Positions 9,520 to 63,094 of a stretch of 64,000 bases of DNA are shown here, one piece after another. The stretch is from Mobula hypostoma (lineage: Eukaryota). Both the position numbers and the translations under genes were made by a program. Location: positions 91,328,001 to 91,392,000 of the forward strand of contig NC_086108.1 in the NCBI RefSeq assembly GCF_963921235.1, in the 5' to 3' direction. The notes under the pieces were generated by a model. That model did not search any database, was not told where the DNA came from, and was given only the letters and a program-made list of their open reading frames with translations. How positions within the stretch are numbered: the first letter of the stretch is position 1; each line of letters opens with the position of its first letter.

Positions 9520-9615
9520 TCCTTATGAAAGGTTTCATCCTGAAATATTAACTGTTTATTCCTTTCCATAGATGGTGGCTGATCTGCTGAGTTCCTCCAG
9601 CATTTTGTGCGTGTT
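9520..9615 (+). mobile_element. Short Penelope-derived (pLTR-like) repeat with a decayed hammerhead motif
   Basis: CAGTCCTTATGAAAGGTTTCATCCTGAAATATTAACTG...CTGCTGAGTTCCTCCAGCATTTTGTG; same family as 33945-34085 and as the 3' end of the Penelope fragment at 60235-60330. Confidence 0.7.
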
Positions 9616-9942
9616 ACTCTATCTCATAACAAAATGGTCACACTATTTAATTTTTCATTTTTTCTATTGTCAAAGATTTTTCTTTATGCCTCTATGATAT
9701 ACTTTGAAATTGTTTTTAATATTTGTATGTTTATTGTTGTTGCGTCAATGCCACTATTAATTTCAACAGGGAACATGGCATATGAGTCTACTTGAATTAA
9801 AATTCTATTCTGCTGCATCCTCCCAACCATTTCTCCTGACACACTCAGTTACAGAGTTGTCCTTCTTAAAAATGACTTAATCTGGCTGAACAACTGCTGT
9901 CTACAAGAAGGAAGGGGGGCAGAAGAAAGGAAATTAGACCCG

Positions 9943-12097
9943 GAGACCATGAGACATGGGAGCAGAATTAGGCCATATGGCCCATCAAGTCTGCTCCACC
10001 ATTCGATCATGGCTGATCCTTTTTTTTCTCCTCCTCAACCCCGGTTCCTGGTCTTCTCCCCGTAACCTTTGATGCAATGTCCAATCAAGAACCTATCAAA
10101 CTCTGCCATAAATACATCCAAAGACCTGGCCTCGACAGCTGCATGTGGCAACAAATTCAACATCCTTTAGCTAAAGAAATTTCTCCGCATCTCTGTTTTG
10201 AAAGGGAACCCCTCTATCCTGAGGCTGTGCCCTCTTGTCCTAGACTCTCCCACCATGGGAAACATCCTTTCCACATCTACTCTGTCTAGGCTTTTCAACA
10301 TTTGAAAGGTTTCAATGAGAATCCCACTTATCCTTCCGCATTCCAGCAAGTACAGACCCAGAGCCATCAAACGTTCCTCGTATGATAACCCTTTCATTCC
10401 TGGAATCATCCTTGTGAAACTCCTCTAAACACTCTCTGATGCCAGCACACCTTTTGGAAGATGAGGGGCCCGAAACTGTTCACAGTACTCAAGGTGAGGC
10501 CTCACCAGTGCCTTATAAAGCTTCAGCATCACACCCTTGTTCTTGTAATATAGACCTCTTGAAATGAATCTAACATGGCATTTGCCTTCCTCACCACCAA
10601 CTTGACCTTCAAGTTACTTTTTAGGGTGTTCTGCACAAGAACTCCCAAGTCCCCTTGCATCTCAGATTTTTGGATTTTCTGCCCATTTAGAAAATAGTCC
10701 GCACATTTATTTCTATTACCAAAGTGCATGACCAAGCATTTTCCAACATTGTATTTCATTTGCCACTTTCTTTCCTATTCTCCTAATCTGTCCAAGTCCT
10801 TCTGCATCCTACCCGTTTCCTCAACACTACCTGCCCCTACATCAACCTTCATATCATCTGCAAACTTGGCAACAAAGCCTTCTATTCCATCGTCTAAATC
10901 ATTTACATGCAGCATGTAAAGAAGTGGTCCCAACACCGACCCCTGCGGAATACCACTAGTCACTGCCAGCGAACCGGAAAAGGATCCCTTTATTCCCACT
11001 CACTGCCTCCTACCAATCAGACAATGCTCTAACCATGTTTGTACTTCCCTGTAATACCATGGGCTCTTAACTTGGTAAGTAGCCTCGTGTTTGGCAACTT
11101 GTCAAAGGCCATCTGAAAGTCCAAATATACAACATCCACTACATCTCCTTTATGTATCCTACTTGTAATCTCCTCAAAGAATTCCAACAAGTTTGTCAGA
11201 CAAGATTTTACCTTAAGGAAACCACACTGACTTTGTGCTATCATATTCTGTGTCATCAAGAACTCCATAACCTCATCCTTGACAATTGACTCCAAGATCT
11301 TCTCAACCACTGAGGTCAAGCTAACTGGTCTATAATTTCCTTTCTGCTGCCTTCCTCCATTTTAAGCAGTGGAATGACTTCTGCAATTTTCAGTCCTCTG
11401 GCACGATGTCAGAGATTTTTGAAAGAAAATTTCTAATGCCACCACAATCTCTAACACTACCTCTTTCAGTACCCTAGCGTGCAGTTCCTCTGGTGTGGGT
11501 GATTTATGTACCTTCAGGTCTTTCAGCTTTTTGAGCACCTTCTCTCTTGTAATAGTAACTGCACCCACTTCTCTTCCTTCACACACTATAACATCAGGCA
11601 TTCTGCTAGTGTGTTCCACAGTGAAGACTCCTGCAAAATACTCATTTAGTTCATCAGCCACCTCCATGTCCCCTGTTATTATTTCTCCCGCCTCATTTTC
11701 TAACGGTCCTATATTCACTCTCACTTCTCTTTTATTTTTAACATACTTGAAAGCACTTTTACTATCCACTTTGATATTATTTGCTAGCCTGCATTCATAT
11801 TTCATCTTTTCCCTTCTAAAGATCTTTTTAGTTGTTCTCTGTAGGTTTATAAAAACTTCCCAATCCTCCATCTTCCCACTAATATTTGCTTTGTTGTATG
11901 CCCTTTCTTTTGCTTTTACAATAGCTTTGACTTCCCTTGTCAGCCATGGTTGTACTATTTTACCATTTTTGGAATATATATGTTCTGTATCTTCCTCATT
12001 TTTCCCAGAAAAGAAATGCCATTGCTGCTCTGCTGACAACCCTAACAGCAACTCCTTCCAGTTTACTTCGGGCCATCTCCTCTCCAATATCACTGTA
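9943..12097 (-). mobile_element. 5'-truncated CR1 LINE, disrupted
   Basis: Minus-strand ORFs 11362-12093, 11029-11319 (YLDFQMAFDK), 10775-10999 ([14 protein letters not shown]), 10529-10759 and 10167-10409; CR1 3' tail at ~9943-10070. Confidence 0.95.
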
Positions 12098-12099
12098 AT

Positions 12100-15000
12100 T
12101 TTCAGTTATATGCCAGTTAACCTGACTTCAGTGTTAGGGAAGATGTTGGAGTCCATTATTAAGGTTAAGATTTTGGGGTAGTTGGAGGTACATGATAAAA
12201 TAGACCAAAAGTCAGCATGATTTCAGTACTCTCAAATCTGTTAGAATTCTTTGAGGAAATAACAGGCAGGATAAACAAAGAGTCAATCGATATTGTTTAT
12301 TTGGATTTTCAGAAGGCCTTTGACAAGGTGCCACACATGAGGCTGCTTAACAAGATAAGAGCCCATGGTGTTACAGGAAAGGCACTGGCATGGTTAGAAG
12401 ACTAGCTGAATGGTAGGAGCTAAAGAGTGGAAATAAAGGAGACCTTTTCTGCTTGGCTTCAGGTGACTAGTGTCGCAGAAGTTGGTGTTGGGAGTTCATC
12501 TTTTCACATAGTATGTCAATGATTCGGATAATGTATTAAATGGCTTAGAGGCCAAGTTTGCGAAGTATACAAAGATAAATGGAGGGGCAGATAGTGTTAA
12601 AAAAGGAAGAAGTTTGCAGAAGAACTTAAATAGATTGGGAAATTAGGCAAAAAAGTGGCAGATGGACTATAGTTTAGATAAGTGTATAGTCAAGCGCTTT
12701 GGTAGAAAAAATAAAGGCGTAGACTATTTTATAAATGGGGAATTCAAAAATCAGAGATGCCAAGGGACTTTGGAGTCCTCATGCAGGATTCCCTAAAGGT
12801 TAACTTGCAGATTGAGTTAATGGTAAGGAATGCAAATGCAATGTTAGTATGCATTTCAAGAGGATAAGAATATAAGAGCAAGAATGTCATGCTGAGGCTT
12901 TATAAGGCATTGATCAGACCACACTTGGAGTATTGCGAGAAGTTTTTGAATGCTTATCTCAGAAAAGATCTGCTGGCATTGGGAAGGATCCAGGGGAGGC
13001 TCAGGAGAATGTTTCCAAGAATGAAACGGTTAACATATGAGGAGTGTTCAAATGCTTGGGTCTGTACTCACTGGAGTTTAAAAGAATGAGGGGGGAATCT
13101 CAATGAGCCCTATTGAATGTTGAAAGGCCTAGATAGTGTTAATGTGGGGAATGTGGGAGCAAATTTGTAAGGAGATTCCAGATATTTGTAATAAGCACAA
13201 GGTTGTGTGTGGGAGATTTTAATTTTCCACACAAAGACTGGGAAGCGCATTCTGTAAAAAGGCTGGATGGTTTGGAGTTTGTCAAATGTATGCAAGATAG
13301 ATTTTTGCAGCAATACATAGAGGTACCAACTAGAGAAGGGGCAGTGTTGGATCTCCTGTTAGGGAATGAGATAGGGCAGGTGATGGAGGTATGTGTTGGG
13401 GAGCACTTCGGGTCCAGTGATCACAATACCATTAGTTTCAATATAATTATGCAGAAGGATAGGACTGGAACCAGGGTTGAGATTTTTGATTGGAGAATGG
13501 CTAAATTTGAGGAGATGCGAAAGGATTTAGAAGGAGTGGATTGGGACAATTTGTTTCATGGGAAGAATGTAATAGAGAAATGGAGGTCATTTAAAGGTGA
13601 AATTTTGAGGGTACAGGATCTTTATGTTCCTGTTAGGTTGAAAGGAAAGGTTAAAAGTTTGAGAGAGCCATGATTTTCAAGGGATATTGGAAACTTGGTT
13701 CGGAAAAAGAAAGGGATCTACAATAAATATAGGCAGCATGGAGTTAATGAGGTGCTTGAGGAATATAAAGAATGTAAAAAGAATCTTAAGAAAGGAATTA
13801 GAAAAGCTAAAAGAAGATATGAGGCTGCTTTGGCAAGTAAGGTGAAAATAAATCCAAAGGATTTCTACAGTTATATTAATAGCAAAAGGATAGTGAGGGA
13901 TAAAACTGGTCCCTTAGAGAATCAGAGTGGATGGCTATGTGCAGAGCCAAAAGAGATGGGGGAGATTTTGAACAATTTCTTTTCTTCGGTATTCACTAAG
14001 GAGAAGGATATTGAATTGTGTAAGGTAAGGGAAACAAGAAGGGTAGTTATGGAAAGTATGATGATTAAAGAAGAGGAAGTACTGGTGCTTTTAAGGAATA
14101 TAAAAATGGATAAGTCTCCAGGTCTGGTCAAGATATTCCCTAGGTCCTTGAGGGAAGTTAGTGTGGAAATAGCAGGGGCTCTGACAGAAATATTTCAAAT
14201 GTCATTAGAAACAGGGATGGTGCCGGAGAATTGGCATATTGCTCATGTTGTTCCATTGTTTAAAAAGGGTTCTAAGAGTAAACCTAACAATTATTGGCCT
14301 GTAAGTTTGACTTCAGTGGTGGGTAAATTGATAGAAAGTATTCTTAGAGATGGTATATATAATTATCTGGATAGACAGGATCTGATTAGGAACAGTCAAC
14401 ATGGATTTGTGCATGGAAGGTCATGTTTGACAAATCTTATTGAATTTTTTGATGAGGTTACTAGGAAAGTTGACAAGGGTAAAGCGGTGGATGTTGTCTA
14501 TATGGTCTTCAGTAAGGCCTTTGACAAGGTTCCACACGGAAGGTTAGTTAGGAAGGTTCAGTCGTTAGGCATTAATATCAAAGTAGTAAAATGGATTCAG
14601 CAGCGGCTGGATGGGAGACCACAGAGATTAGTGGTGGATAACTGTGTGTCAGATTGGAGGACAGTGTGGACCGGTGTGCCTCAGGGATCTGTACTGGGTC
14701 CAGTATAGTTTGTCATATATATTAATGATCTGAATGATGGGGTGGTAAATTGGATTAGTAAGTATGCAGATGATACTAAGAGAGGTGGCGTTGTGGATAA
14801 TGAAGTAGGTTTTCAAAGCTTGCAGAGAGATTTAGGCCAGTTAGAAGAGTGGCCTGAGAGATGGCAGATGGAGTTTAATGCTGATAGATGTGAGGTGCTA
14901 CATTTTGGTAGGACTAATTAAAATAGGACATACATGGTAAATGGTAGGGCATTGAAGAATGCTGTAGAACAGAGGGATCTAGGAATAATGGTGCATAGTT

Positions 15001-15972: not shown

Positions 15973-16159
15973 GGCTTATATGATCATCTTCACTTTTCTA
16001 GCCATCCAGACCCATTTATTTACTTCCTCACATTGTGTTATTCCTCTGTCACTTCGACAGCCTCCTTGCTTCTGTGCCCCTCACCATGTCTCTATGTACC
16101 ACCAGCTTCATCCACTCAAAATGCAAAACATGTTGCATAACCTCTTCTGTATATATATC

Positions 16160-22503: not shown

Positions 22504-22833
22504 TTAATGGAAGCTTAAGTTCGCTTTGCTTATCGCTTAATGGTGACCAAATTGAATTCCAGCCAGAGCAAACAATGGCAAGGATGTCTGTGTTGATTTC
22601 CAACAGAGAATGTTTGTTACATATTATAATAGTGTGGGAAGCTTTTGTCCACAAGGCAGTAGACAAATGGACCCTGGGATCCACTAATAAGCCTAGACAA
22701 AGACAGAGAATGCTGGAGGCACTCAGTGGGAAAGACTCACTTTTTCCCTCTAAATGTAGCTTCACCTGGTGAGTACGTCCAGCGTTTCCAGTTTCAGCTT
22801 TGGACTTCAAGCATTTGCAGTGTTTTCGGCTCT

Positions 22834-23691
22834 ACATAGAAACATAGAAACATAGAAACATAGAAACATAGAAAATAGGTGCAGGAGTAGGCCATTCGGC
22901 CCTTCGAGCCTGCACCGCCATTTATTATGATCATGGCTGATCATCCAACTCAGAACCCCGCCCCAGCCTTCCCTCCATACCCCCTGACCCCCGTAGCCAC
23001 AAGGGCCGTATCTAACTCCCTCTTAAATATAGCCAATGAACTGGCCTCAACTGTTTCCTGTGGCAGAGAATTCCACAGATTCACCACTCTCTGTGTGAAG
23101 AAGTTTTTCCTAATCTCGGTCCTAAAAGGCTTCCCCTCTATCCTCAAACTGTGGCCCCTCGTTCTGGACTTCCCCAACATCGGGAACAATCTTCCTGCAT
23201 CTAGCCTGTCCAATCCCTTTAGGGTCTTATACGTTTCAATCAGATCCCCCCTCAATCTTCTAAATTCCAACGAGTACAAGCCCAGTTCATCCAGTCTTTC
23301 TTCATATGAAAGTCCTGCCATCCCAGGAATCAATCTGGTGAACCTTCTTTGTACTCCCTCTATGGCAAGGATGTCTTTCCTCAGATTAGGGGACCAAAAC
23401 TGCACACAATACTCCAGGTGTGGTCTCACCAAGGCCTTGTACAACTGCAGTAGTACCTCCCTGCTCCTGTACTCGAATCCTCTCGCTATAAATGCCAGCA
23501 TACCATTCGCCTTTTTCACCGCCTGCTGTACCTGCATGCCCACTTTCAATGACTGGTGTATAATGACACCCAGGTCTCGTTGCACCTCCCCTTTTCCTAA
23601 TCGGCCACCATTCAGATAATAATCTGTTTTCCTATTTTTGCCACCAAAGTGGATAACTTCACATTTATCCACATTAAATTGCATCTGCCAT
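22834..23691 (-). mobile_element. Very young 5'-truncated CR1 with an uninterrupted ORF2 C-terminus
   Basis: ORF 22950-23684 has no stops; (ACATAGAA)n tail at 22835-22873; near-identical inverted copy of ~3495-4329. Confidence 0.97.
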
Positions 23692-24788
23692 GATAAACCT
23701 TAGTTTGCAAAAGCAACAAGGGAACCAGTTAAAACTAAAAGGACAACATGGCAAATAGTGCAGGTTTGTGTGCCTTCCAGTAGCTAACTACACACCCAGA
23801 TTTTCAGCAAAGAAGTGTGAGTCTTAGAAAGCCAGCAAATGAAGAACATTGTGCTTCTGTTCCAGATGAGAGAGCGAGAAAGCTGTGGTTGCTCAGACAG
23901 AGTAAGATAAGGTCATGGCTGGTGCTTTTCCTTCGATGGAGATCTGAATCAAATATTGACACAAACAATCTTTACAGTTGCAAGTAGCACTGAAGCTACT
24001 AATGCAGGGTTTTGGGCAGACTAAGATGAATGTTGTAAATAAAAGGCCTCAAGATTCTGCCTATGTGAAATCATGTTTGAATGTGTCACTGTGAATAATT
24101 CATGTTTGAGCTGTGTTTGGTGCCATTTTCTATACCGATGGCAGTTCAAGTGATTTGCAAACTTGACGTTGTTGTTGGATGTGAAAATATTTGTACGCAA
24201 ATAGACAAATGTCATCTGTTTTGTATACTGTATATTTTGTACATTGTAATTTTTGGTTTTGTATACTTTGCATGTTATTTAGTAAGATTCTTTGTGGGTT
24301 CACAATCTCAGAGTGTGTCTTTGCAGCTGGAAAACTCCCTCCTGTGTTACTGACCCATGAATGTTCTAACCAAAGAAAGTGTTCTGTTTTTACGTTCATT
24401 AAATATTTAAATTTCTATGGTGAGTCTTTAAAGAAATTATGTACTAAAGTTTAAAGACTGAACATTTAACTTGCAGAACGACATGTGTTCTTCGGGTTTG
24501 CTTCCTTTCATTTTCAATAATTATTTGTTTAAATGATAGACGACCAGATATGTTGACTGATAATGGAGAAGAAACATGGAAGTTATAGTGGGTGACTTTA
24601 ATTTCTCCCAAAGTAACATCCTTAGTATCAATACACCCAAGAAGTTTTCTAGACACATTTTGGGGAAGGGGCCATACTAGACTTTGTATTGGAAGTGACC
24701 TACCCGAGTGAATATAGTTTCAATGGGAGAACATTTTGGGAACTGCGATCATAACTCAGTAAGTTAAGGATATAGACAAGACTGGACT

Positions 24789-26960: not shown

Positions 26961-27054
26961 GTATGTTCAATATTGTATATCCCTAATTATCACTGAAATG
27001 AGGAGACAGTTAATAGTCAAATACAAAAGTTGTTCTAATGCCACATAAAATATA

Positions 27055-27252
27055 AAGCAACACACACAGAATGCCAGAGGAACACAGTAAGTCAAGCAGC
27101 ATCTATGGAAAAGAGTTTAGGCCAAGGGTCTCGGCTCAAACTTTGACTGTTTACCCTTTTCCATAGATGCTGCCTGAGCTGCTGCGTACCTCTGGCATTC
27201 TGCATATGTTGCTTTAGATTTCCAGCATCTGCAGACTTTCTCATGTTTGTGA
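27055..27252. mobile_element. Fold-back Penelope-derived element
   Basis: AAAGCAACACACACAGAATGCCAGAGG..GCAGCATCTATGGAAAAG is inverted against CTTTTCCATAGATGCTGC..CCTCTGGCATTCTGCATATGTTGCTTT; the centre holds an AAGGGTCTCGGCTCAAAC hammerhead remnant. Confidence 0.75.
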
Positions 27253-27663
27253 TTTACTACTCCCCATATAACCCTGATTGGGTAAGAATAACTGATTCCA
27301 TTCTCCAAGCATTAATGACAGGGGTGCAGTGCTGCTGGAGCTCTCTGGAGCACTGCTCCGGCACCTCTGTAAAAAACAATCAAAATAAACAGGTGGGGAA
27401 TTTAACAGCAGCGGCATATTAAATAGAGGGAATTTTACAGAAGCGGGGATTGGGGAGAGGGGGTGGTGGCCTGTGGGGAAAATACCACTAATAACATTAG
27501 GATATTTGATCATTTTTGGTGAAATCCTGGAGCCGTGACTGTTTTTTTATTTTGGTATTTGTGAAATTCCCCCTCGCTCGACCCGTTGTCCCAGCATGCC
27601 CTGCTGTAGCCTCCCGCCATTTCACCGATCCTCAGTCTCTCTCCGGCACTCGTTGTTTGAGCA

Positions 27664-29929: not shown

Positions 29930-30016
29930 TATAGAGAGGATATAGGAAATGGGAGGCATTTTGTCAGCTCCGGCACCTGAAAAATTAGCACTACACCCCT
30001 GATTAATGAACCGGAA

Positions 30017-30232
30017 ATCACAAATGCGAGAGATTCCACAGATGCTGGAAATCCAAGCACATAGAAAATGCTAAAGGAACTCATCAGGTCAGGCAGCATC
30101 TATAGATAGGAACAAAGATTCAACCATTACGGGATGAGACCAGATGAAGGGCCTTGGCTCAGAACATTGACTCTTTAGTCCTTTCCATAGATGCCGCCTG
30201 AAGTGCTGAGTTTGTCCAGCATTTTGTGTGCT
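30017..30232. mobile_element. Fold-back Penelope-derived element, decayed
   Basis: Left arm AAAATGCTAAAGGAACTCATCAGGTCAGGCAGCATCTAT, right arm ATAGATGCCGCCTGAAGTGCTGAGTTTGTCCAGCATTTT, centre CAGATGAAGGGCCTTGGCTCAGAACATTGACT. Confidence 0.7.
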
Positions 30233-30669
30233 TTATTAATGAACTAGATGATCTTTTTTAATGAGAATCATCTAATTTCTGTTAATGAGATAAGCTTTTG
30301 TTAAAATTCTGTATTTATTTAGTTAGCTGATATATTAATTAGAATGTTAACTAATGCACAGATTAATTCAATTAATTCAAGCCTAATGTACATTATTTTT
30401 GACAGACCCCCTTCAGCACTCACACTTTGAAGATTTGTTAAATAAGAACAACCTAAAAAGTTAGTGAATCAATGTAACAGACAAAGACAGATGAGACCAG
30501 GAATGACTTTGTTTCATTCCAAAGTTATAGAACTTCTGTACTTCAAGGATAGATTCTCCTTAAGAATTGTAATATTGGAGTGTGTACAAATTGTGGGGAA
30601 TTTCTTAAACAAGAATAATTATAATTTATGTTAATATGGCAATCAATATTATACATTAGAGTGATTAGA

Positions 30670-33122: not shown

Positions 33123-33944
33123 AAATCACAATTATAAACGGACAATCTTTTCTGTTCCCTTTATGTCTTGGTGCAGAGCCTCAACCCAAAGTATCAATTT
33201 ACACCTTTTGCCACCACAAATACTGCTTGCCCCGCTGAGTCCTTCCTGCATTCTTTTATTGTATGCGGTTGTTTTCATCAGGGTTTTATAAAGTTCTTCA
33301 TGAATTTTTTAGCCTTCTACTATGTGCCTGTATTATAAGCCCAGGATCCTCTATGCTTTTCCGGTCATTTTCTCAATCAGCCATTTCAATGCAGTATGTG
33401 CACATAAACCCAGGTCTCCGTGTTCATGTAGTCATATTAGAATTATATCTTCCAGTTCCTATTGACTTTTCTCACCAATTGTAGCAAGGCATCATCTGTC
33501 AACCTTGCTGCACCTGTTCAGTTTCTTGCTCATCCAGAATCACAATTACAAGTTCCTTTTTGAAAATTGGAGTCAGTAGCAGTGGACAACTCAGTTCCTC
33601 AAACATGATTCATTATTCAACACAATCGTGGCTAATCTGACTGCATCATCAGCTCTGCATTCTACCTCCTACTCAGTAAAATTTTTATACCTACTTGCAT
33701 ATCAGGAATCAACCTCCTACTTCTAAATATTCAGTAACTGCTTCAACCACCCTTAGAAGAAGTCAGTCTATGACTTTTGAAACTAATTATTTTAACTTAT
33801 CTCTGTTAAAATGGAAACACTTAAGATTATGCTACAATCTTTAGTCATTAATTGTATTTTTTTTATATATGAAGAAGCATTCAGTCTAGATCCACCTGGC
33901 TGAAGTTTTTTGATGTTTCAAACAAGCCTTTCCGAACTTTCAGA

Positions 33945-34085
33945 CGAGGAAATCTGCAGATGCTGGAATTTCAAGCAACACACATAAAAGTTGCTGGTGA
34001 ACGCAGCAGGCCAGGCAGCATCTCTAGGAAGAGGTACAGTCGACGTTTCAGGCCGAGACCCTTCGTCAGGACTAACTGAAAAAAG
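33945..34085 (-). mobile_element. Short Penelope-derived element, best-preserved copy
   Basis: Retains CpGs and contains the intact hammerhead motif; homologous to the 3' end of the GIY-YIG-coding fragment at 59262-60330. Confidence 0.85.
34038..34073 (-). ncRNA. Minimal type I hammerhead ribozyme motif (Penelope-associated)
   Basis: Minus-strand RNA: AGUC-CUGACGA-AGGGUCUCGGCCU-GAAAC-GUC^-GACU. Helix I is AGUC/GACU, the CUGANGA and GAAA cores are present, helix II can form, helix III is a loopless palindromic ACGU, and the cleavage triplet is GUC. Confidence 0.75.
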
Positions 34086-34714
34086 AAATAGTAAGAGCAT
34101 AGACTAAACTTTTATAGCTTGTTAGTTTGCTTTTTAAATCTTCCACTGAAAATCCTTCCAGTTTTACCTAGTCTTGTCTTGTATCTAGTTTTTCCTTCCT
34201 TATTAATCTCTTAGTCAATCTCTGATGAGATTCCAGTGGCATCTTCTTCCTCAGTAAAGAATGAAGTGATGTACTCAGTTAGTACTTCAGCTGTGTCTTC
34301 TGCCTTCAGAAGCAAGCTTCCATTTTGATCCTGTGTGCCATCCTTTCTTGTTCACATACCAAGAAGTGTTTTTGGATTCCTTTTTATGTTTTCTGTCAAT
34401 CTTCCTCGCCCGTTGAAACTTATCATGAAAAAAAAGATTTGAATTCCATAAGGGCCTCATGGGGATTGGATAAAAATTGCAAAAATTTTAAAGTCTCTAA
34501 TGACTTTAAATGTATATAAATGTATATACATTTATACATTGGAAATATTGAATAATTTTGAAATGATCATTTCAGGGGACATTTGAAGTGATTATGCATA
34601 TTTAATTATTAGAAGATGATAAATGTATATACATCAACTTTTCACACATCAAAGAAGGTCATTTGGCCTGTCAAGTTTATGCTAGGTCTCAGAGTAATAC
34701 CGTCACTCCATAGA

Positions 34715-38384: not shown

Positions 38385-39161
38385 CCATGCAAACCCCTCC
38401 TAGCTTGTAGAAATTAATTCACATTTAACAAGGCTGTCCCAGTGAAACTGATTTTGCACTTCTGTTTTTGTGTATGTTCTGTACTTGACTGAGCAGATTC
38501 AGAACTCCATTGTGTTTAATAATTAAAAGAATGTTATCTTCAAACTTTGCTTAGGGTCGGTTGTTCCATTTAAGGAGCCGGGACATCATATTGAAATAGC
38601 ATCTTAACTCTGAATTGTTTCAATGTTTCTTTCCACCATCCAGCTTCTTCCCCCTCCCCCATCCGACTTCTGACCAGACAATGAATTCACCCGTGAACAT
38701 TACATCACAATTTTTGCTCTCTTTTTGCACTAATTACTTAGCCACAAAGCAACAAATTTCACGACATATGCTGGTGATATTAAACCTAATCCTCGTTTGG
38801 ATTTTGATACAGCATGGAACATAGAGAGGTATGAAAGAGAAACAGGGCCCTTCAGTTCACAATGCTGTGCTGACCTATCTAACCAATCTCATCTGCTTGC
38901 ACACGGTCCATGTCCCTCCATTCCCTGCCTGTCAGCGTTCCTGACCAAATGCTTCTCGGTCATCAATATCACATCTGCTTCTCCCACCTCCCCTGGCAAC
39001 GCACTGCAAGCATTTGACATTCTCTCTGTTAAAGACTTACCTTCCTTAACATCTCCCCCTCTCACTTTAAAGTTTTGCTCTCCAGTAGTCAGAGATTTAA
39101 AGAGATTAATGATTAGCTTTACTTGTCACATGTACATCGAAACATAAAATGAAATGTGTTG

Positions 39162-39363
39162 ACACAAGAAAATCTGCAGATGCTGGAGATCCAAAGCAAC
39201 ACACACAAAATGCTGGAGGAGCTCAGTAGGCCAGGCAGCATCTGTGGAAAAGAGTAAACAGTCAGAATTGAAGAAGTGTCCTGGCCTGAAACATTGACTG
39301 TTTACTCTTTTCCATAAATGCTGCCTGGCCTACTGAGTTCCTCCAACATTTTGTGTGTGTTGC
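39162..39363. mobile_element. Fold-back Penelope-derived element with 69-bp inverted arms
   Basis: Arms 39196-39264 and 39295-39363 match at 65 of 69 positions; the 30-nt spacer contains TTGAAGA..GGCCTGAAACATT, a decayed hammerhead core. Confidence 0.9.
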
Positions 39364-39889
39364 AATGAGATGCAATATTTGAGTCAAATCAAATCAGTGA
39401 GGATGTGCTGGGCAGCCTGCAAGAGTTGCCACCCTTCTGGTGCCAACATAGCAACCCCACAACTCACTACACCTAACCGTAAGTCTTTGGAATGTGGGAA
39501 GAAACTGGAGTACCGGGAGGAAAATCACACTATCACGTGGAGAATTTATAAACTCCTTACAGCAGCAGGAATCGAACCCAGGTAGTGCTGCAATAGTATT
39601 ACACTAACTGCAAGACTCCAAGTATAAACCCTATCCAAGCCTTTCATTACTTTATAAATTTCTATCAGCTCCAGTGCTTCAGAGAGAACAATGTAATTTT
39701 GCCCAATCTCTCCTTATGGTTAATCTCAAGGTTTAGTAGGTATAGGTATTATTACTAATAGTGTTTCTCCTTATTAGTTCAGATGAAGGGTCTCCAACCT
39801 GGAATGTCAACTGGTTATCTCTCCACAGATTCTGCCTGGCCTGCTGAGCATTTCCAGAATTTCTACTTTTATGTCAGTAGATGCCAGAC

Positions 39890-45002: not shown

Positions 45003-47077
<2,075 letters not shown>

Positions 47078-49829
47078 ACTATGTTTTATAAAATGGAGAA
47101 GAGAACTGTTCACTAAGTGTAATCTAACCAAGAAGGGACTTAGCCCGAACCATCAACTGTTTCCTCTTTTCCACAGATGTTGCCTGGCCTGCTGAGCTCT
47201 TCTAGCATTTTGTATGTGTTAATCTAACTAATGTTTTATACATGTTTAACACAAGTATGATTTTACTTTCTTTCCTCTTGAACTGAACCTAGTGCTGTGT
47301 ATGCTATTAAGTTATCTGATCATTCTTTGCAGCATGTGTACCTGCACTTTCTCTGTAGTTGTTACACTTTATTTTGAATTCTGTTATTGCTTTATCTTAC
47401 CTCAGTGAACTGTGTAATGAATTGATCTCTATGAAAAGTAGGTAGGACAAGCCTTTTTACTGTACCTTGGTACATGTGAAAATGATAAACCAATTACAAT
47501 TCCAATTGCAATGAACCTTGTGCAATGTTACTTCTCCGCTTTAAGCCATGATTCACAGACCAGATGACCAGTTGAAGAGCCATTACCCACAAGGCTATAC
47601 ACAAAAACTCGGAAGTGGGGTTAACCAAAAATCCATTTTTAGCAGGTGTGGAAATGGCAAAGTTAACGGCCTCCTTCTGAACTATTAACATCTGTCACTT
47701 AAGATCCTTTGACCTTTACTCGCTGTTCTTGTTTTGCAGTTGGAAGCTATCTATTCCATGGCTTTTAATAGAACATAGAACGCAGAACATAACACAGAGA
47801 GCATAGAAGGTAAACAGTATGCTTTGAGCCCTTCAGCCCATAATGTACCAGGACTTCAAAAGTTTTTAACTTTAATCATGAACATTAACATATCAAGGAC
47901 TCTTCAAATATATCAGGGCAGAAATTCTTCAATGCATATCAATATGCATCAAGTTTCTGAAAACGTGATATTTTACCATGCAGGGAGGCAAACATATTGT
48001 CCATAGTTGCATAAGCCTTGTATGTCAACACACACCAATATCTTCACTTTGCATGGTTCTGTCATTGCAAAGAGCTCAATGCAAGTTTCTTAGGTAATAT
48101 GTTTTGTAAATTGAGAACTGGGAGGGAAGAAGATGAGAAGATCAGTGGGAAAGATTGGTGGGAGCGGTGAAGGCTGTGTTGGAAGCAGGGTAAGCTGAGA
48201 GATAATTTGAGCAGGCCTGAGGGAAAGATTCTGTGAGAGAGTTTGCCAGTGGGGGAAAATGAGCAGGGATTAGGATTAGAATTGAGAAAATGCTCAAGTG
48301 GTGAGGAGAACTATAGGGTAACTAAGCAGGCAGATGGATGTTGGAATGGTGGTGCCAAAGAAATACTTTGATGGGTGCGAATGAAGAAGCTAAGGAAGTC
48401 ATTAGGGACAATGTGGAGCAGGTTGCAGGTGGTAGCAGCACCCAATAGAACATACTGAAGTGAACAAAGTAATACATTGAAACTAACAATCAGGCTTTTT
48501 AATAAAATTGGCATTCATAGAGCATATACAGGAAATTTCATGTTAGATCAGGCATTCTAGGCCATTACTGTACATTTTCAAAGCATTCAATAAAGCTGAT
48601 CAAGTATAAATATAATGCCGGAATGCTTCTGTATGTTAATCTGGAACAGACATGTTTGGGTTGAAAGCATAGCTTCAACAATCACATATTAATGCTTGAA
48701 GTACAAAACCTAACTGGATAAACACTTTTTTTAAAAAAAACACAATGGCAGCTAGAAGATGAACAGTGTGCAAGGGACATATTCACAGAGGATGAAAATT
48801 TTCATTATTTGTACAAATACGTATATGCTTAAAATCATAACAGCAATATACCACTCATCTTAACTGATAATCTTGCATTCTATACCAAGGTGAACAGTTA
48901 ATAAAATCAAAGCTTACAAAATAAGAGAATAAACTGTACATTAAATTGCCAAACAATTATTTCTTTTAAAATGTGCACATGTTCAATAAGCTCGGCAGAT
49001 CAGGCAGTATTAGAGCAGGGAAAAACAGAGTTCGCATTTTATATAAATCAAGGAACAGTCTGTGATGGGGTTCAGACCTGGAGTTCTGCTCCCTCCTCCC
49101 TTGTCCTATGGCTTAATAGCTGCTCATATCAAACTATTATGGTGAAGAGAAATTGATTCAAAGCACTGTCTTTATTTCCCCCTCTGTAAAACCTGCTGCA
49201 TATTCCAGGACTTCCTGCTCTTATTTCCAGATTTCCAAAATCCACAGTTCTTTTTTTTTTGTTTCCAGTGAAAGTCTAGACTTTGATAAAATATTGGAAG
49301 TTTGCATACCAAAGATCTCCTCCAACCAGTCACTGCTGATTGAGGAGAGACAATTTCATAGCCTACGATTACCAGGATATACAAGGATAATAATTAATGT
49401 TTATTTTTGTTAGGCTAGCCATTTAATTGTCCCTTTACAAAGCATACTAGACTTGCTGGCTACAGGCAGTGAATACTAAATACTGAGATAAGTTTGTTTA
49501 TTAGTAAATGAGGCTATAATCCTTAAAAACACCAAATCTCAAAAATATTGTAATATATTCTGAATGGCACTGTAATACCTTATTTTTTATTATTTATACC
49601 AATAACTTAAAAATTATTGTTTAAGTAACCGACTAGCAACTTTTATAGAAATAGCTCGCATTCATTCAATAAACTTTATCATAAGTGTAGTTTAGCAGCA
49701 TTCAGGTTATGAAAATTAATTTTTTTAGAAAAAGTTTGACTTGCATCTACATAGAACTGTCAAATGTATTGGGAAATAATTAAAACGATGCCTCTAATTG
49801 CACACCATCTTTCATGTAGCAAGATAGTC

Positions 49830-50385: not shown

Positions 50386-50489
50386 GTGGCAAGGGGTTTC
50401 GCATAAACAGTCTCAAGAAAATAAAATCTGAATTGCTCTATAAGCTATCCAAGTTCCGAGAAAATGCTGTACAAATGAAGTGAAAAGCA

Positions 50490-51720
50490 AACATGGGCAG
50501 ATGCTAGACATCCGAAATAAAAATGGAAAATTCTGGAACAGGTCAGGGCAACTTTGTGGAGAGAGACGCAAAGTTATGTTTTAGGTCAGAAACAAATAAG
50601 ACAACAGGTACAGTTACATGTTCGGAATGGTGGGGGCGGGGTGTATAAAGATCAAAGGGAATGTCTGTGCAAGATGGACACTAGGGCTGTCTAGGCAACA
50701 CAAGTAATGTAACATCACTTCAAATTTGGGGCTCAATGCTTATCATATGTCCCAAGAAGTTGAAATAGGGGTAATTACTGAGGCAGTGGAGAAGAAAAAC
50801 TGCTGGAACTGTGAGATGCAGAACACAAAAGTGGATGGAAGTTGGAAATATGTAGTAAACACTCAACGGGTCAGGCAGCATCTGTGGAAAGAGAAAAAAA
50901 TGACTTACCACAGGGCGGTGAATTGTCCACTTCTGACACAGAGGAAGGGCTAGTTATCTGAAATTGTTAGATTCACTGTTCCTTCCCAAGGACTGTAATA
51001 TGTCTAGTCAGATGATGAATTGCTGTTACATGAAGCTACATAGGGCTTCATTGAAGTAGTGTGGGAGCCCAAAGGCAGAGCTAGAGTAAGATAGCAAATT
51101 ACAATGGCAGGCAAATGGAAATGCCAGCTTCAAAGTTCAAAGTAAATTTGTTATCAAAGTACAGATATGACACTGTTCACTACCTTGAGATTCATTTTCT
51201 TGCAGGCTTCACAAAAAAAAAAGAAATAGAATGGAATTAATGAAAAGCCAAGCACAGAGACTGACAAATAACCAATGTGCAAAAGACAAACAGTGTAAAA
51301 ATACTGTAAATACATAAATAATATTGAGAACATGAAAGCGAGTCCACAGGTTGTGAGTTCAGAGTTGAGGTGAGGGAAGTTATCCATTCTGGTTCAGGAC
51401 CCTGTTGTTTGAAAGGGGATCACCCACTAAAGGGGGTCACTCAATCTGTGCTTGAATTTTCCACTGCAGATGAGATCACACCATAAAAATTGAATATGAT
51501 GCATTACATCTGAAGAAGAGCTTCCCCCGAAAGCCTGTTTAGATCCTGATTGTGGAAAGGGAAGAATTAAAATGGCAGATGTGACATTGCATGGGAAATG
51601 GTCAGTGGTTGGTGGATTTGGAAAAATGAACCCAGAAACTGCAGAGGAAGTGCTCCCTTTAGAATAATGAGCAGGAAAGAAAGAAGATATGGCTGGTTAC
51701 AGAATCTTATTACAGTTGAA
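50490..51720 (-). mobile_element. Old Penelope fragment (GIY-YIG C-terminus plus pLTR pieces) with a LINE tail inserted at 51130-51420
   Basis: Minus strand 50952-51130 resembles 59790-59970 (PFACH..GLPHYFNEA..QQFI..LDILQ..NNFR); pLTR-like pieces at 50490-50570 and 50800-50890. Confidence 0.55.
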
Positions 51721-52902: not shown

Positions 52903-54430
52903 CCTGCAATGCAAAGAGAGCCCAGCAGGGCTAAAATGGGTTTGATTGATTTTGGCAAATATCACAAATACTATGGAAGAAGTGAGCTCTAGCCATTTCC
53001 TCCTACACCTATAAGAATAAGGCACGTGGCACACTGACAACACAGTTTACCTCTGTGCCTACGCCTACCATATAGCATGCCTGCTTTAATTTGCAGGCAC
53101 TGTTTTACTAAATGTCAAGGTCAACACGTCAGATTGGGTTGGTAAACCCATAGATCCAATATTCGTAAAAACATCATTAAATTCCTTTTTGCTTATGAGC
53201 GTGGGCTCAAATGTATTATAAGCATTTCCTACCTTTAAAGTTTTTCCTTTTCACTGAAATATTTAACATCAATATGACTATTTGAGGGGCAAAACTTATT
53301 ATGGTCATTCTTTTCATAAAAAAGAAATCAAAGCCTTAAATCGTGCTGCATTTTGTCCGAGCAGGGAGAATGCTGTGGAATAAAATGAAAGGAGCATTCC
53401 ATATGCCCAGAGCTAAGGTTTTCAAAATGGACAATTTCTCATCCATGTACTCTGGATGTCAAATTAATGTTGCACAATCAGTTTCATAAGTCCTCCTTAA
53501 AGACCATATAATATTGGATCAAATGTGCTTCTAAACAGGTATTTCTACTTCCATCTCCATCAATCTAATCTGATAGTGTCTCCTGCCCAGAAACTCCATT
53601 TCATGGTAATAACCAGGGGATTACAAATTCTCGTCACTGTAGAGAGCCTGCTAGGATTCAATTTTATTTTGTTTCTGGTTGCACCTAGCCTAGCAGCATT
53701 TATAAATCTTTTTTCTAATATTGGATTGCCGGACTGCAGGGTAAGTGGAGTACAATTACATAATTATATAGTGCATACTAGTATTTCACAAGGTTCTCTG
53801 AGCTCCAGCCAACAGCACCAGTAGCAACTACACTTGCAACTTTCCGGCATCTCCTGCCCCCACCAGACTCCTAAATATGAATGATGGCTAAGATAGGAGG
53901 GGAAAGAAATTACCAATGAGCTACAGCAAATGCAATTTAGCTACTCTGTTTAAGCCAATGCAGCATTAATATACTTGGCCAGATTAATTGATCTCCGACT
54001 CTATATTTTGCAACTGAATATCTGGATCTAGAAATCCTTGCTGGTTATTGCTCTGCCAATGACCTATGCTTGAGTGTGCAGGAACAGGGCAAGGTCACTC
54101 CTTCGTCTGTGTTATAGAAAGATCAAAAAAAACCTCATTCCTTTTAACAGTGCTAACCTGTCCTTGAATAACTTCTCGATAGAACGTCTTGCTATTCTGC
54201 ACTGCACCATTTGACGAATACAAGGGAGAGAATGTTGTAATTATTGCTGACTGCCAAGGGGAAGATTGCAGTGTATGTTGCCGAGTGCAGTATGTGCTAA
54301 CAATGCTGGATTCTGACCAACATTAAACTTGGCAAATTATCAGTTTATTATAAGCTTTTCTCATGTGACTTTATTATCATCACACATGAAAGACTTGTCT
54401 TGCATATCATCCATACAATAAAATATTTCA

Positions 54431-54530
54431 GGCAACACACATCAAAGTTGCTGGTGAACGCAGCAGGCCAGGCAGCATCTCTGGAAAGAGGTACAGTCGA
54501 TGTTTCAGGCTGAGACCCTTCGTCAGGACC
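54431..54530 (-). mobile_element. Short Penelope-derived element ending at a hammerhead motif (54495-54530)
   Basis: Minus-strand RNA GGUC-CUGACGA-AGGGUCUCAGCCU-GAAAC-AUC-GACU; nearly identical to 33975-34073. Confidence 0.8.
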
Positions 54531-57912: not shown

Positions 57913-59261
57913 AGTGATAGGGGATTCGTTAGTTAGAGGAACAGAAAGGAGGTTTTATAGACTATAATGAAATTCCCAGATGGTTTATTACCTTCCCTGT
58001 AGCAGGGTCAGAGATATCTCGCATAAAGTCCATGTCATTCTGAAGGGGGGTGGGGAAAGCGTGAGTAGACAGAGATTGTGGTGCATGTTGTTACCAATGG
58101 CATGGATAGGAGGGATGATGAGGTCCTGCAAAGTGAGTTCAGTGAGTTAGGTGACAAGCGAAAGGGCAAGACCTCCAGGGTTGTCATCTCAGGATTGCTA
58201 CCCATGCCACATGCTAGTGAGGCTGGAAATAGAAATATTTCAACAATGCCTAAGGAGATGGTGCAGTAGGGAGGGCTTCAGATTTTTGGATCATTGGGCT
58301 CTCTTGCAGGGAAGGTGAGACCTGTACAGGAGGGACAATTCAATTTACACCTGAACTGGAAAGGAACTAATGTCCTAGGGGGAAGGTTTGTGAATGCTGC
58401 ACGGTGAGGGGGCTTAAACTAGAATTGCAGGGGAATGGAAACCAGAGCACCAGAACAGATAGTGGAATGGTTGTGGAGAAAGATGTGTTAAGCCTACATA
58501 TAAAGTCAGGAACCAAAATGTTGAGCATGGTAGGACTAATGTTCTGTGCTGCATATAATCCAATGTAAGGAGTATCGTAGGACAGGCAGATAAGCTTAGG
58601 GCATGGATCAACATGTGAAATTATGACATTGTAACCATTAGTGAGACTTGGTTGCAGGAGGGGCAGGACTGGCAGTTCACAGTTCCGGGGTTCCTTTGTT
58701 TTAGAAGTGATAGAGTGGGAGGGATAGTGTTACTAGTCAGGGCAGTTTTCAGTTAGGACAGACTGGAGAGCTCCTCCAGGGAGGCTTTATGGGTAGAATG
58801 GAGGAAGAAGAAAGATATGACCACGTTAATGGGATAATATTATGGACCACCCAACAGTCCACGGGATTTAGAGGAGCAAATTTTTTGAGAGATCACAGAC
58901 TGTTGGAAGAAACAGAAGGGTGTGAAAGTAGGTGATTTTAACATTTCCACATATTGAGTGGGTCTCCCATACTCTAAAAGGACTGGACGGGAAAGAGGTT
59001 TCAAATATATTCAGTGATGTTTCCTTGATCAACACATCAACCCAAATAAAGAGAGTGTGATACTACTAGATCTCCTATTAGGGAATGAGACAAGGTAGGT
59101 GACAGAAGTTTGTGTAGGATAACACTTTTCTTCTAATGATCATAATGCCATTAATTTAAAGGTAATTGTGGAAAAGGATAGATTTAGTACTCGGGGTGAG
59201 ATTCTGAATTAGGAAGAGGCCAGTTTTGATGGTATCATAAAGGATCTGACAAGGGTGGATT

Positions 59262-60330
59262 GTGGAATCCCTCACCCCACTTTCTGCTTTCCGCAGGGAT
59301 TGCTCTCTTGTCCATTTCTCCCTCCCCACTGATCTTCCTCCTGGTACTTATGCTTGCAAGCGGAACAAGTGTCGCACTTGCCCTACACCTCCTCCCTCAC
59401 TACCATTCAGGGCCCCAAATGGTCCTTCCAGGTGAGGCAACACTTCACCTTTACTTTATTGTCGCCAAACAATTGATACTAGAGCATACAATCATCACAG
59501 CGATATTTGATTCTGCGCTTCGCGCTCCCTGGATTACAAATTGATAGTAAATATTAAAAATTTAAATTTGAAATCATAAATAGAAAATAGAAAAGGGAAA
59601 GTAAGGTAGTGCAAAAAAAATATGAGGCAGGTCTGGATATTTGGAGGGTACGGCCCAGATCCCTATGAGTCTGTTGGGGTCATATTCTGTGTCTGATGTT
59701 CTTGGGGTGGCCTCCTGTATATCGGTGAGACCCAACGTAAATTGGGAGACCGCTTCGCCCAGCACCTACGTTCCATCTGCCAGAAAAAGCAGGATCTCCC
59801 AGTGGCCACCCATTTTAATTCCACTTCCCATTCCTATTCCAATATGTCTATCCATGGTCTCCTCCACTGTTGTAATGAGGCCACACTTAGGATGGAGAAA
59901 CAGCACCTCACATTCCATCTGGGTAGCCTCCAACATGATGGCATGAACATCGATTTCTCGAACATCTGGTAATTCCCTCCCCCTTCATCATTCACCATCC
60001 CCTTTTCCCTCTGTCACCTTATTTTCTTGCCTGCCCATCGCCTCTCTCTGGTGCTTCTCCCCCCTTTTCTTTTTTCCTCTTCTATCAGACTCCCCTTCTC
60101 TAGCCCTGTATCTCTTTCATCAATCAACTTCCCAGCTCTTTCCTTCATCCATCCCCCTTTAGAATTCACCTATCACCTTGTGTTTCTCTCTCCCCTCCCC
60201 CATCTTTTTAATCTACTCCTCAGCATTTTTTCTCCAGTTCTGCCAAAGGGCCTTGGACCGAAATGTCAACTGTACTCTTTTCCAGAGATGTTGTCTGACC
60301 TGCTGAGCTCCTCCAACATTTTGAGTGTGG
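59262..60330 (+). mobile_element. Penelope-like element 3' fragment (GIY-YIG endonuclease plus pLTR), interrupted by a Rex 3' UTR at 59450-59662
   Basis: LLYIGETQRKLGDRFAQHLRSICQKKQDLPVATHFN..EKQHLTFHLGSLQHDGMN; C/T-rich spacer; ends in the pLTR-type repeat with decayed CTGCCAAAGGGCCTTGGACCGAAATGTCAACTG. Confidence 0.9.
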
Positions 60331-62215
60331 GGCTAAAAGAAGACACGAGATTGCTCTAGCAGACAAGGTGAAGGAGAATCCTATAAGGGCTTCTACAGAT
60401 ATATTAACAACAAATGGATAGCAAGAGACAAAATTGGTCTTCTCAAAAATCAGAGTCGTAATCTATGTGTGGATCCAAATGAGTTGGGATCGATTTTAAA
60501 TGGACATTTTGTATCGGTATTTACTCAGAGTCTATAGATGTGAGGCAATGCAGCAGCGGGGTCACTGACCCCATACAGATTACAGAGGAGGAGGCATTTG
60601 CTGTCTTGATGCACATTCAGGTGGCCTGACAAGATGTTTCCTCAGATCCTGTAGGAGACTAGTGCAGAAATTGCAGGGGTCTTATTTAAAACAACCTTAG
60701 CTACGACTGAAATGCCAGAGGATTGGAGGATAGCTAATGTTGTTTAAGAAAGACTCTAAGAATAAGCCAGGAAATTTTAGGCCAGTAAGTCTGACATCAG
60801 TAGTGGGAAAGTTATTGAAAAGTATTCTAAGGGACTGGATATATTAGTATCTGGATAGACAGGGATCGATTTGGGATAGTCAAAATGGCTTTGTGCATGG
60901 TAAATCATATATAACCAATCATAGATTTTTTTTGAGGAGGTTAACTGGAAAGTGGATGAAGGCAAGTCAATAGATGTTCACCAGATGGACTTTAACAAGG
61001 CATTTGACAAGGTCCCTCATGAGAGGTTGGCCAAGAAGGTTCAATTGATTGGCATTCAAGATAAGATAGTAAGCAGGATTAGACATTGGTTTTGTAGAAG
61101 AAGCCAGAGAGCTGTTGGAGATAATTGCCTCTCTGACTGGAGGCCTAGTGACTTGTGGTGTGACGTAGGGACTGGTGCTGGGTCCATTACTGTTTGTCAT
61201 CTATATCAACAATCTGGATGATAATGTGGTAAGCTGGATTTGCAAATTTGAAGAAGCACTAAAATTGGGGATATAGCAGATAGCAAGGAAGACTACCAAA
61301 GCTTGCAGTGGGATCTGGAACAGCTGGGAAAATGGGCAGATAGGGTTTAACGCAGATAAGTGTGAAGTGTTGCACTTTGTGACGACCAGCCAGGGTAGGT
61401 CTTACACTGTGAGCACTCGGGTGCTGAGGAGTGTGATAGAACAGAGGGATCCGGGAATACAGATTCATGATTCCTCAAAAGTGGTGTCAAAGGTAGGTAA
61501 GGCTGTAAAGAAAACTCTTTGGACATTGGCCTTCATAAATCAAAGTACTGATGAGATGTTGTGTTGAAGTTGTACAAGACATTGCTGAGGCCTAAATTGG
61601 TCCGTTGAAGTTTTACAAGACATTGCTGAGGCCTAAATTGGTCCATTCCAGATTTGGTCACGTACCTACAGAAAAGTTGCAAATATGATTGATAGAGTGA
61701 AGAGAAAATTTACAAGGATGTTGCCAGATTTTAAGAATCTGAGTTATAGGGTAAGGTTGAATAGGTTAGGCCTTAATTCCCTAGAATGTAAGACTAAGGG
61801 GAGTCTGACTGAGGTACACAAAATTATATGGGTTATAGATAGGATAAACGCAAGCAGACTTTTTCCACTGAGGTTGGGTGAGACTGCAATTAGAAGTCAT
61901 GGGTCAAGGGGAACATGAGGGGGAATTTCTTCACTGAGACGGTGGCGAGAATGTGGAACGAGTTGCTTGCGGAGGTGGTGCATAGGGGTCAATTTCAACA
62001 TTTAAGAGAAATTTGGTAGGTTCATGGATAAGAGGGGTACAGAGGGCTATGCTCCAGGTGCAGCTCAATGGAACTAGGCAGATTAGATGGGCCAAAGGGC
62101 TTGTTTCTGTGCTGTAGTGTACTATGAATCTACAGCATTGTAATCTAAGTTTGAGCCCTCTTTCCTTATTTTTGTAACAAACAGGAATGATTAACTATTG
62201 TAATCCAGCTGTATA

Positions 62216-62895
62216 CAGTACTGTGCAACAGACTTAGATACATGTAAAGAAAATTCTGTAAAGCAAAAATACTTTCAAAAATAATGAAATGATAAATTTC
62301 TGAGTAAAAGTTTCAAAAAATTCACTAAAATGAGCAGTAAGCAGTCAAAAACTAAATCAAATCAATATTTGGTCTGAACACCCTTTGCTTTTAAAACTGA
62401 ATCAATTCCCCTAGCTGCATGGTTATGCAGTCTTATAAGAAAATTGACTAGTAGGTTGTTCCAAACATCTTAGAGACCTTGTCACAGTCCTTCTGAAGAC
62501 TTTGGCTGTCTGACCTCCTCTGTCTCTCCAGGTAATCTGAGACAGCTGCTAGGATTTTTTTATTTTATTTGCTTATTTATTGAGATACAGCGTGGAATAG
62601 GCCCTTCGAGTCACGCTACTCAGCAACCCCTGATTTAACCCTGGCCTAATCACAGGACAATTTATAATGACCAATTAACCTACCAACCAGTATGTCTTTA
62701 AACTGTGGGAGGAAACCAGAGCACCTGGAGAAAACCCACAGGATCACAGAGAGAACATACAAACTCCGTACGATGGCAGTGGTACTGTAACTTGTTGTGC
62801 TAACCTTGTCACTCATGATCAGGGCTTTGTGGAGGTCCTACCATCCAAAACCATATAAAAAAATCTAGCAGGACTAAAACTTTTGCACAGTCCTG
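62216..62895. mobile_element. Non-autonomous Tc1-like transposon with a nested V-SINE
   Basis: Left end TA|CAGTACTGTGCAACAGACTTAG and right end CTAAAACTTTTGCACAGTCCTG are imperfect inverted repeats. Confidence 0.7.
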
Positions 62896-63094
62896 GTTAT
62901 ATTCTTTAAATAAATATTAGTCTTTGTCCATTCTCCGTTAATCCATTTGGTAAGCTCCCTCTTTATACTCACAATAACTTCTCTATATTTATGTTCAGAT
63001 GAAGAGCCTCAACCCTAAAAGTCATTTGTTATTTTTCTCTCCACAGAGGCTGCCTGACCTGCTGAGTTCCTCCAGCAGTTCAGTTTTGCACACC

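Follow-up and report, generated by a model that had tools for sequence, protein, structure and literature searches.

In this study, we examined a 64,000-nucleotide stretch of the Mobula hypostoma genome (assembly GCF_963921235.1, contig NC_086108.1, positions 91,328,001 to 91,392,000, forward strand; hereafter the window), in which a short dispersed repeat with traces of a hammerhead ribozyme occurs together with a fragment of a Penelope-like element (PLE). The window has a GC content of 41% and holds many decayed long interspersed element (LINE) frames coding for reverse transcriptase (RT). Our findings support a model where the repeats are, very probably, abortive one-off insertions (stumps) that several very high-copy subfamilies of Neptune-type PLEs produced through their RT/GIY-YIG protein, and not a family that propagates itself. 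The PLE fragment itself, here called the parent, comprises the following features.

59263..60329, plus strand: the parent, a 5'-truncated 3' fragment of a Neptune/Nematis-type PLE with linker, GIY-YIG domain, untranslated region (UTR), decayed hammerhead and short end
60235..60272, plus strand: decayed hammerhead position of the parent, core CTGCCAA, helix II and the cut triplet region mutated; predicted cut after 60267; missed by the motif descriptor
59452..59664, minus strand: later insertion in the parent, the terminal ~215 bp of another element without long terminal repeats (non-LTR), 87% identical to 56847-57068; it splits the PLE frame

The parent frame ends at a stop codon at 59970-59972, shifts once near 59383 and is broken by a single in-frame stop near 59694; in tblastn the Mobula protein P0002 aligns to it in three pieces (59274-59384 at 68%, 59381-59449 at 96% and 59667-60113 at 62%). 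Its GIY-YIG domain matches Pfam PF01541 with E 0.0038, below the gathering score, and the top matches of this fragment (79-82%) are PLE-like proteins of Hypanus and Mobula that end at the same place; the eight homologues (of 12 candidates) all come from Hypanus, Mobula or Leucoraja. The linker reads CKRNKCRTC (CX4CX2C, ~59356-59382), and a CX2-5CxxC linker is described as a mark of the Neptune and Nematis clades (PMC8557442). As judged from this linker, the GIY-YIG domain and the similarity to ray proteins, the parent is a Neptune/Nematis-type PLE. It is truncated before the RT; in the relatives P0002, P0004 and P0008, a YIDD motif lies upstream within one open reading frame (ORF; read by eye). 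Three ray or skate gene models (P0003, P0005 and P0006) also match the PLE endonuclease, at 60-70%, and two of them bear host-gene names (a kinase-domain isoform and a mucin); these matches are probably annotation read-through into repeats.

A pyrimidine-rich UTR of ~260 bp joins the GIY-YIG-coding fragment, unbroken, to the copy of the repeat at 60235-60329. The edges of this UTR (59968-60237, plus strand) look like those of an intron, with GT by the stop codon on one side and, at helix I on the other, CAG together with a polypyrimidine tract; in Drosophila virilis Penelope an intron ends at helix I (PMC4209133). Contigs that match 59665-60360 at 80% or more number 66,749 and 57,793 in two organisms, and depth is present in 29 of 29 bins of the parent stretch, ORF part included, varying more than 100-fold with local divergence and allowing no truncation profile to be derived. 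Hundreds of contigs diverge directly after the parent stop codon (loose ends 59959-59974), and 417 and 422 contigs in the two organisms continue beyond 60329 with tail-like letters. Thus, the parent family is very abundant, its UTRs differ among subfamilies, and the present copy is clipped, ending ~6 nt short of the short terminus and lacking the tail. The proposal that 60235-60330 is the natural 3' end of a PLE needs correcting on this point; its contiguity with the GIY-YIG fragment is confirmed.

The repeat was searched for with an nhmmer profile built from 13 arms of the window, which match by construction, against one reversed and 19 locally shuffled control windows. Seventeen sites carry the repeat, 21 arms in all; the arms score between 6.7 and 183 bits (at least 9.9 bits in 20 of the 21), against a top control score of 6.4 bits. 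The weakest retained arm (22703-22727, 6.7 bits) was accepted solely as the mirror of its neighbour, and four weaker matches (0.9-3.2 bits) were excluded. Modal arm length is ~100 nt and density is one site per 3.8 kb. A first reading made from the sequence only had named 15 sites and a high copy number, with about one copy per 5 kb; the repeat is present at all 15, and two sites are new (48979-49010 and 50487-50587). Four of the supposed single units (22700, 27055, 30017 and 39162) are head-to-head inverted pairs. Arm positions below are counted from C17, the base before the predicted cut (0), with core C3 at -27 and the helix I 5' strand at -32..-28; ends were called by hand in two sets, conservative and core-nearest (liberal), and all end statistics refer to the 64-kb window.

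4366..4405, minus strand: tail-only insertion of 40 bp without hammerhead, ~+61 to +102; 13-bp target duplication 4353-4365 / 4406-4418
9500..9618, plus strand: single arm, -34/-47 to +69; core mutated
22697..22840, both strands: old inverted pair of the diverged group C; the tailed plus arm covers ~+7 to +100 and the minus arm +38 to +60; left arm 6.7 bits
25331..25461, plus strand: single arm with tail, -22 to +105
27053..27258, both strands: inverted pair with a tailed plus arm (-21 to +111) and a tail-less minus arm (+9, or -12, to +72)
30012..30234, both strands: inverted pair of 223 bp whose tailed minus arm covers -18 to +111 and whose tail-less plus arm covers -28 to +66; 2-bp overlap at the junction; 10-bp target duplication 30002-30011 / 30235-30244
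33150..33258, plus strand: old single arm, group C, -30/-46 to +58
33945..34095, minus strand: subfamily B arm with tail, ~-47/-60 to +97; 93-94% to the 54431 copy
39157..39363, both strands: inverted pair whose tailed minus arm covers 0/+1 to +102 and whose tail-less plus arm covers -26/-32 to +67; the junction holds helix I sequence readable on either strand; candidate 9-bp target duplication with one mismatch, not significant (p 0.11)
39764..39878, plus strand: single arm, group C, -31/-39 to ~+70
47129..47219, plus strand: single arm of 91 bp without the helix I 5' strand, -22/-24 to +64; 9-bp target duplication 47120-47128 / 47220-47228
48979..49010, minus strand: weak short arm, new here, nhmmer E 0.009
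50487..50587, minus strand: old arm with tail, group C, new here, -11 to ~+100; nhmmer E 2e-4
50800..50897, minus strand: old arm, group C, beginning at +6, with an ambiguous 3' end (at +57 or in a diverged tail)
54426..54529, minus strand: subfamily B arm without tail, -30 to +74; core intact, helix III palindrome broken (GAAAC-AUC)
62987..63085, plus strand: single arm, group C, -30/-67 to +56

The 3' ends of the arms fall into two classes, 13 at +52..+74 and eight at +97..+111, with none between; the ~35-40 nt that separate them are what we call the tail. Inverted pairs stand at four of the 17 sites, and in all four only one arm carries the tail. At 30017 and 39162 the junctions show overlaps of 2-5 bp in the hammerhead region. 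Exact AT-rich target duplications exceed the control at three of the 17 sites (13 bp at 4365, 10 bp at 30017 and 9 bp at 47130); among 272 mismatched flank pairs, an exact match reached 9 bp in two and 13 bp in none. The 4365 tail-only insertion and the 47130 arm, which starts inside the core, are complete insertions unable to form the ribozyme. The same signature has been published for endonuclease-bearing (EN+) PLEs: 5' truncation, an adjacent inverted and 5'-truncated pseudo-long terminal repeat (pLTR), and an optional tail of 30-40 bp (PMC3846280; PMC8557442). Together with the contiguous GIY-YIG parent, this bears out the PLE origin and PLE-driven mobilisation proposed from the sequence.

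The hammerhead itself is seldom preserved. The best-kept motif lies in the 33945 copy.

34037..34074, minus strand: minimal type I hammerhead, predicted cut between 34042 and 34041

It consists of a helix I of 5 bp, CUGACGA, one extra A, helix II and GAAAC-GUC, and has every sequence feature of a minimal hammerhead ribozyme (min-HHR), with a G10.1-U11.1 wobble in place of G-C. A descriptor scan finds two matches in the window (33945 and 54431) against 0.04 per shuffled window; the motif is thus intact in two of 21 arms, and in the other 19, parent included, the core is lost or mutated. 'Hammerhead-bearing', as the family had been described, holds for those two arms and fails for the rest. The helix I 5' strand or the core is missing from most stumps. 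The arms at 30140, 39779 and 62996 share the core variant CAGATGA (U4 to A); these and the CTGCCAA of the parent may be subfamily variants with an inactive core. An intact consensus, GGCCCGAAAC-GUC-GACUG, is found among the loose contig ends (run X18). Minimum free energy (MFE) folding does not single out the hammerhead in seven copies (z -1.4 to +1.1); at 34037-34074 helices I and II are present in the MFE fold, yet z is -0.33. Min-HHRs sit in the pLTRs of metazoan PLEs, including fish Xena, Poseidon and Neptune, where the motif works poorly and as a dimer only (PMC4209133). The stumps are probably not working ribozymes. In an Rfam scan of the window no hammerhead family occurs among the seven matches at E <= 1, all below gathering score, and an exact 26-base pattern gives no match in metagenome contigs or in prokaryote genome contigs. 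Two microRNA-like Rfam matches (39229-39330 and 30096-30194) overlie inverted pairs, of which the 39162 pair folds as a hairpin with z = -16; PLE stump hairpins are an annotation hazard, mimicking microRNA precursors and miniature inverted-repeat transposable elements (MITEs).

How might such stumps arise? In the anole Poseidon element PAc, both strands are nicked and extended at AT-rich targets, a dimer is predicted, it is mostly uncleaved RNA that serves as substrate in vitro, and the tail is the stretch between two internal RT start sites (PMC11167929). In the very probable scenario of abortive PLE insertion, the endonuclease would nick AT-rich DNA with a stagger of 9-13 nt, as shown by the three target duplications, with an AT preference known for Poseidon in vitro. 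RT would start inside the terminal-repeat RNA at either of two sites ~35-40 nt apart, giving short or tailed arms; the two end classes are observed, and the two start sites are carried over from the anole element to the window family. The template would be RNA uncut by the hammerhead, a step suggested by the 15-16 of 21 arms that span the predicted cut and in agreement with the copying of uncleaved RNA in vitro. Synthesis would mostly stop once 40-160 nt have been made, and often at a point 18-32 nt upstream of the cut. About one event in four has a second, inverted arm, an architecture that is observed; most simply, this arm would be primed at the second nick with use of the alternative start site (twin priming), and the two cDNAs would be united at overlaps of 2-5 bp within the hammerhead helices. 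The copies would then decay, the CpG sites of the motif included.

Several observations weigh against this account, at least in its plainest form. No ORF-bearing parent of group C lies in the window, and the PLE origin of this group is deduced from homology (47-65% to the parent). The parent is the only one of the 21 arms that extends past -70, and the number of 5' ends at -32..-18 (7-10) is, under the core-nearest calls, larger than constant-hazard truncation predicts; plain random truncation may be too simple. No significant target duplication was found, relative to the 272 control pairs, at 14 of the 17 sites. At 27055 and 22700 the arms are nested, the shorter one lying wholly within the span of the longer, and fold-back fits these pairs as well as twin priming does. 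The parent stands in a LINE which we take to be CR1-like; ~260 bp of this target have been lost relative to the copy at 13143-14716, and no significant duplication flanks the parent. With this loss goes a 5-bp repeat, present at each of the two parent junctions (59262/60330). Lastly, the anole PAc start site is AC-rich (PMC11167929), as opposed to a GU-rich sense strand at the short end here.

A variant of the same PLE machinery, tentative but with a fair claim to attention, has a short terminal-repeat RNA beginning at the upstream edge of the hammerhead, by a transcription start or a splice acceptor, or RT stopping at the fold; it would refine the abortive-insertion account, not exclude it. 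Arm 5' ends are spread from +61 to -1005; their soft mode, within the core or helix I, is at -32..-18 and takes in seven (conservative) to ten (core-nearest) of the 21 ends. A first geometric null proved too generous, very short arms being missed, and was rerun conditional on reaching +10: among the 18-19 arms that do so, P for this fixed interval is 0.017 (conservative) or <0.0001 (core-nearest). Permuting the observed lengths over arms gave P 0.03 to 5e-5. For seven 5' ends the position is pinned, whether by a duplication, by a junction or by a flank rich in purines. A polypyrimidine tract and YAG precede helix I in all three copies with clear upstream sequence, as at the intron end of D. 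virilis Penelope (PMC4209133), although the AG is also demanded by helix I. The -32..-18 interval was, however, picked post hoc: the scan P allowing for its choice is 0.20 (conservative) or 0.005 (liberal), and with one arm per site 0.21-0.51 or 0.0004-0.07. Moreover, the ends scatter over at least 15 nt, and subfamily-specific UTRs pull alignment ends falsely towards -32. Median 5' ends are -14.5 in tailed arms and -28/-30 in short ones, a gap of 13.5-15.5 nt that lies between the expectations for ends set by position (0) and by length (~38). The best 15 of 470 contig joints contain no UTR-spanning intron, and splicing as the cause of the ends near -30 is unsupported there; by eye, the copies have no flank upstream of -30 in common. 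Overall, the upstream mode is suggestive of a real tendency, short of proven; if it holds, the cause would lie in where the RNA begins or in RT halting at the fold, and not in catalysis. Of the five copies described as beginning at the core, 47130 (-22/-24, bounded by its duplication) and 54431 (-30) do so, 9520 reaches -34 to -47, and 39775 (-31 to -39) and 62993 (-30 to -67) are ambiguous.

It is rather unlikely that the inverted pairs arose by fold-back, one cDNA or antisense template priming itself, with endonuclease trimming afterwards, as proposed for other PLEs (PMC3846280; PMC8557442). The overlapping or palindromic bases at the junctions fit such an origin, as does the nesting at 27055 and 22700. 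In the 30017 and 39162 pairs, on the other hand, each arm carries sequence missing from its partner (tail against further upstream reach). Paired arms share one or two private variants, no more than unrelated arms do (0-4 in 42 pairs); a single template or gene conversion for both arms was rejected on this count.

A separate SINE-like (short interspersed element) or retrozyme family of 105-145 nt, amplifying itself from short copies, possibly through hammerhead-made circles, is very doubtful. Abundance (17 sites in 64 kb), the modal length and the supported 33945 and 54431 pair would fit it, and retrozymes derive from PLE terminal repeats and are reported from one chondrichthyan genome (bioRxiv 10.64898/2026.07.22.740005). 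Retrozymes are described as head-to-tail arrays with a hammerhead per unit and circular RNAs (PMC7229834; bioRxiv 10.64898/2026.07.22.740005). In the window, none of the 11 TRF rows is a tandem array of the PLE unit and no two intact motifs stand in tandem; the repeats therefore fall outside the definition of a retrozyme. The 5' ends are spread from +61 to beyond -1000, and a minimal hammerhead that needs a dimer (PMC4209133) is intact in two of 21 arms, with the helix I 5' strand or core absent from most. An arm tree (17 of the 21 arms, those of at least 85 nt; low power) gives about three groups: A, with the parent and nine arms at 79-92% to the majority line; B, in which 33945 and 54431 agree at 93% (support 100/99); and C, older and loose (55-68%). 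Within A the parent falls among the stumps without resolution, and no clade of short copies excludes it. The simpler case against which the sequence-only reading had set its own proposal, namely 5'-truncated PLE insertions without independent subfamily structure, thus largely holds, the 3' ends and inversions also following the PLE pattern. The repeats are neither a retrozyme nor a separate SINE, but known PLE biology.

That hammerhead self-cleavage sets the template's 5' end, copies stopping at the cut, is highly improbable: the 39162 minus arm starts at 0/+1, but its junction also reads as helix I microhomology, it is the only one of 21 arms within 3 nt of the predicted scissile bond, 15-16 cross it, the tail-only insertion has no hammerhead at all, and in the anole element no reads ended at the cut (PMC11167929). 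Ribozyme cleavage does not set the ends. Of the earlier suggestion that element boundaries are linked to the ribozyme or its processing, the processing part is not supported, and the link to the ribozyme region is suggestive only, with a scan P anywhere from 0.0004 to 0.5 depending on the end calls.

The window holds other repeats. Decayed hAT-like transposase frames (215 aa and 234 aa) lie at 27660-29370 (plus strand), with a weak match to the hAT dimerisation domain (E 0.053). About 100 bp upstream of the 30017 pair, a near-perfect hairpin of ~87 bp (29833-29922), unrelated to the PLE repeat and with its top Rfam match below gathering score, may be a transposon end or MITE. A U6 small nuclear RNA-like fragment at 40586-40693 (minus strand; 27.7 bits vs a gathering score of 44, E 0.008) is likely a retropseudogene. 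LINE ORF1 remnants are found at 21063-21554 (minus strand; GDSL/SGNH esterase fold, E 6.5e-6) and, similar by eye, at ~57900-58360 (plus strand). Two near-identical CR1-like 3' ends with a (ACATAGAA)n tail, at 22834-23699 (minus strand) and 2521-4330 (plus strand), each adjoin a PLE stump, the former the inverted pair at 22697..22840 and the latter the insertion at 4365. RT-coding non-LTR fragments of another clade occur at 56847-57564 and 45340-46530 (both minus strand); by their motifs they may be Rex1/Babar-like, and their terminal part turns up again within the PLE (59452-59664).

As a kind, PLE ends that are truncated and carry minimal hammerheads have been known since 2014 and are mostly ordinary. 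The role of the hammerhead in PLEs and the origin of inverted, tailed insertions are nonetheless not yet settled (PMC8557442; PMC11167929), and ray genomes hold many small insertions with exact bounds, in which the mapping of ends could by itself tell whether cleavage, the start of the RNA or stalling of RT is at work, and whether pairs come from fold-back or from twin priming. Our literature search found no work joining Penelope, the hammerhead ribozyme and cartilaginous fish, nor, in the sources found, a mapping of PLE 5' ends against the motif; Repbase, Dfam or preprint supplements may already list the family. As a speculation, and an unlikely one taken whole, the dominant Neptune-type template in rays could be a short uncleaved terminal-repeat RNA beginning at the upstream edge of the hammerhead, primed by a protein dimer from both nicks at two internal sites, with the cDNAs joined through the hammerhead helices. 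Were this so, the hammerhead would act as a structural boundary and joining device, not as a nuclease, and genomic stumps would be a direct record of the PLE integration pathway in vivo.

The stumps resemble several described systems to different degrees. With the min-HHRs of PLEs (PMC4209133) they share the CUGANGA core, the extra base after A9, a short helix I and a loopless palindromic helix III, but helix II is 4-5 bp long in the window copies. The same source describes dispersed single motifs 'probably related to truncated PLEs' and opposite-strand pairs 100-700 bp apart; in the sections covered it names no cartilaginous fish and does not map 5' ends against the motif. Like retrozymes (PMC7229834; bioRxiv 10.64898/2026.07.22.740005), the repeats are PLE-related and non-coding, with a type I hammerhead motif, and dispersed retrozyme monomers do exist; unlike them, they form no arrays, pair head-to-head and carry a minimal, mostly broken motif. 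The anole PAc element (PMC11167929) has likewise two termini a tail apart, ~60-110 nt downstream of the cut, and AT-rich targets, yet belongs to another clade, the parent here having the CX2-5CxxC linker. The complex insertions of EN+ PLEs (PMC3846280; PMC8557442) show the same head-to-head arms, tail at one end, duplications of 9-13 bp and overlaps at inverted junctions; the ray stumps differ from them in that nearly all inserts are 40-225 bp long and in their very high density of one per 3.8 kb.

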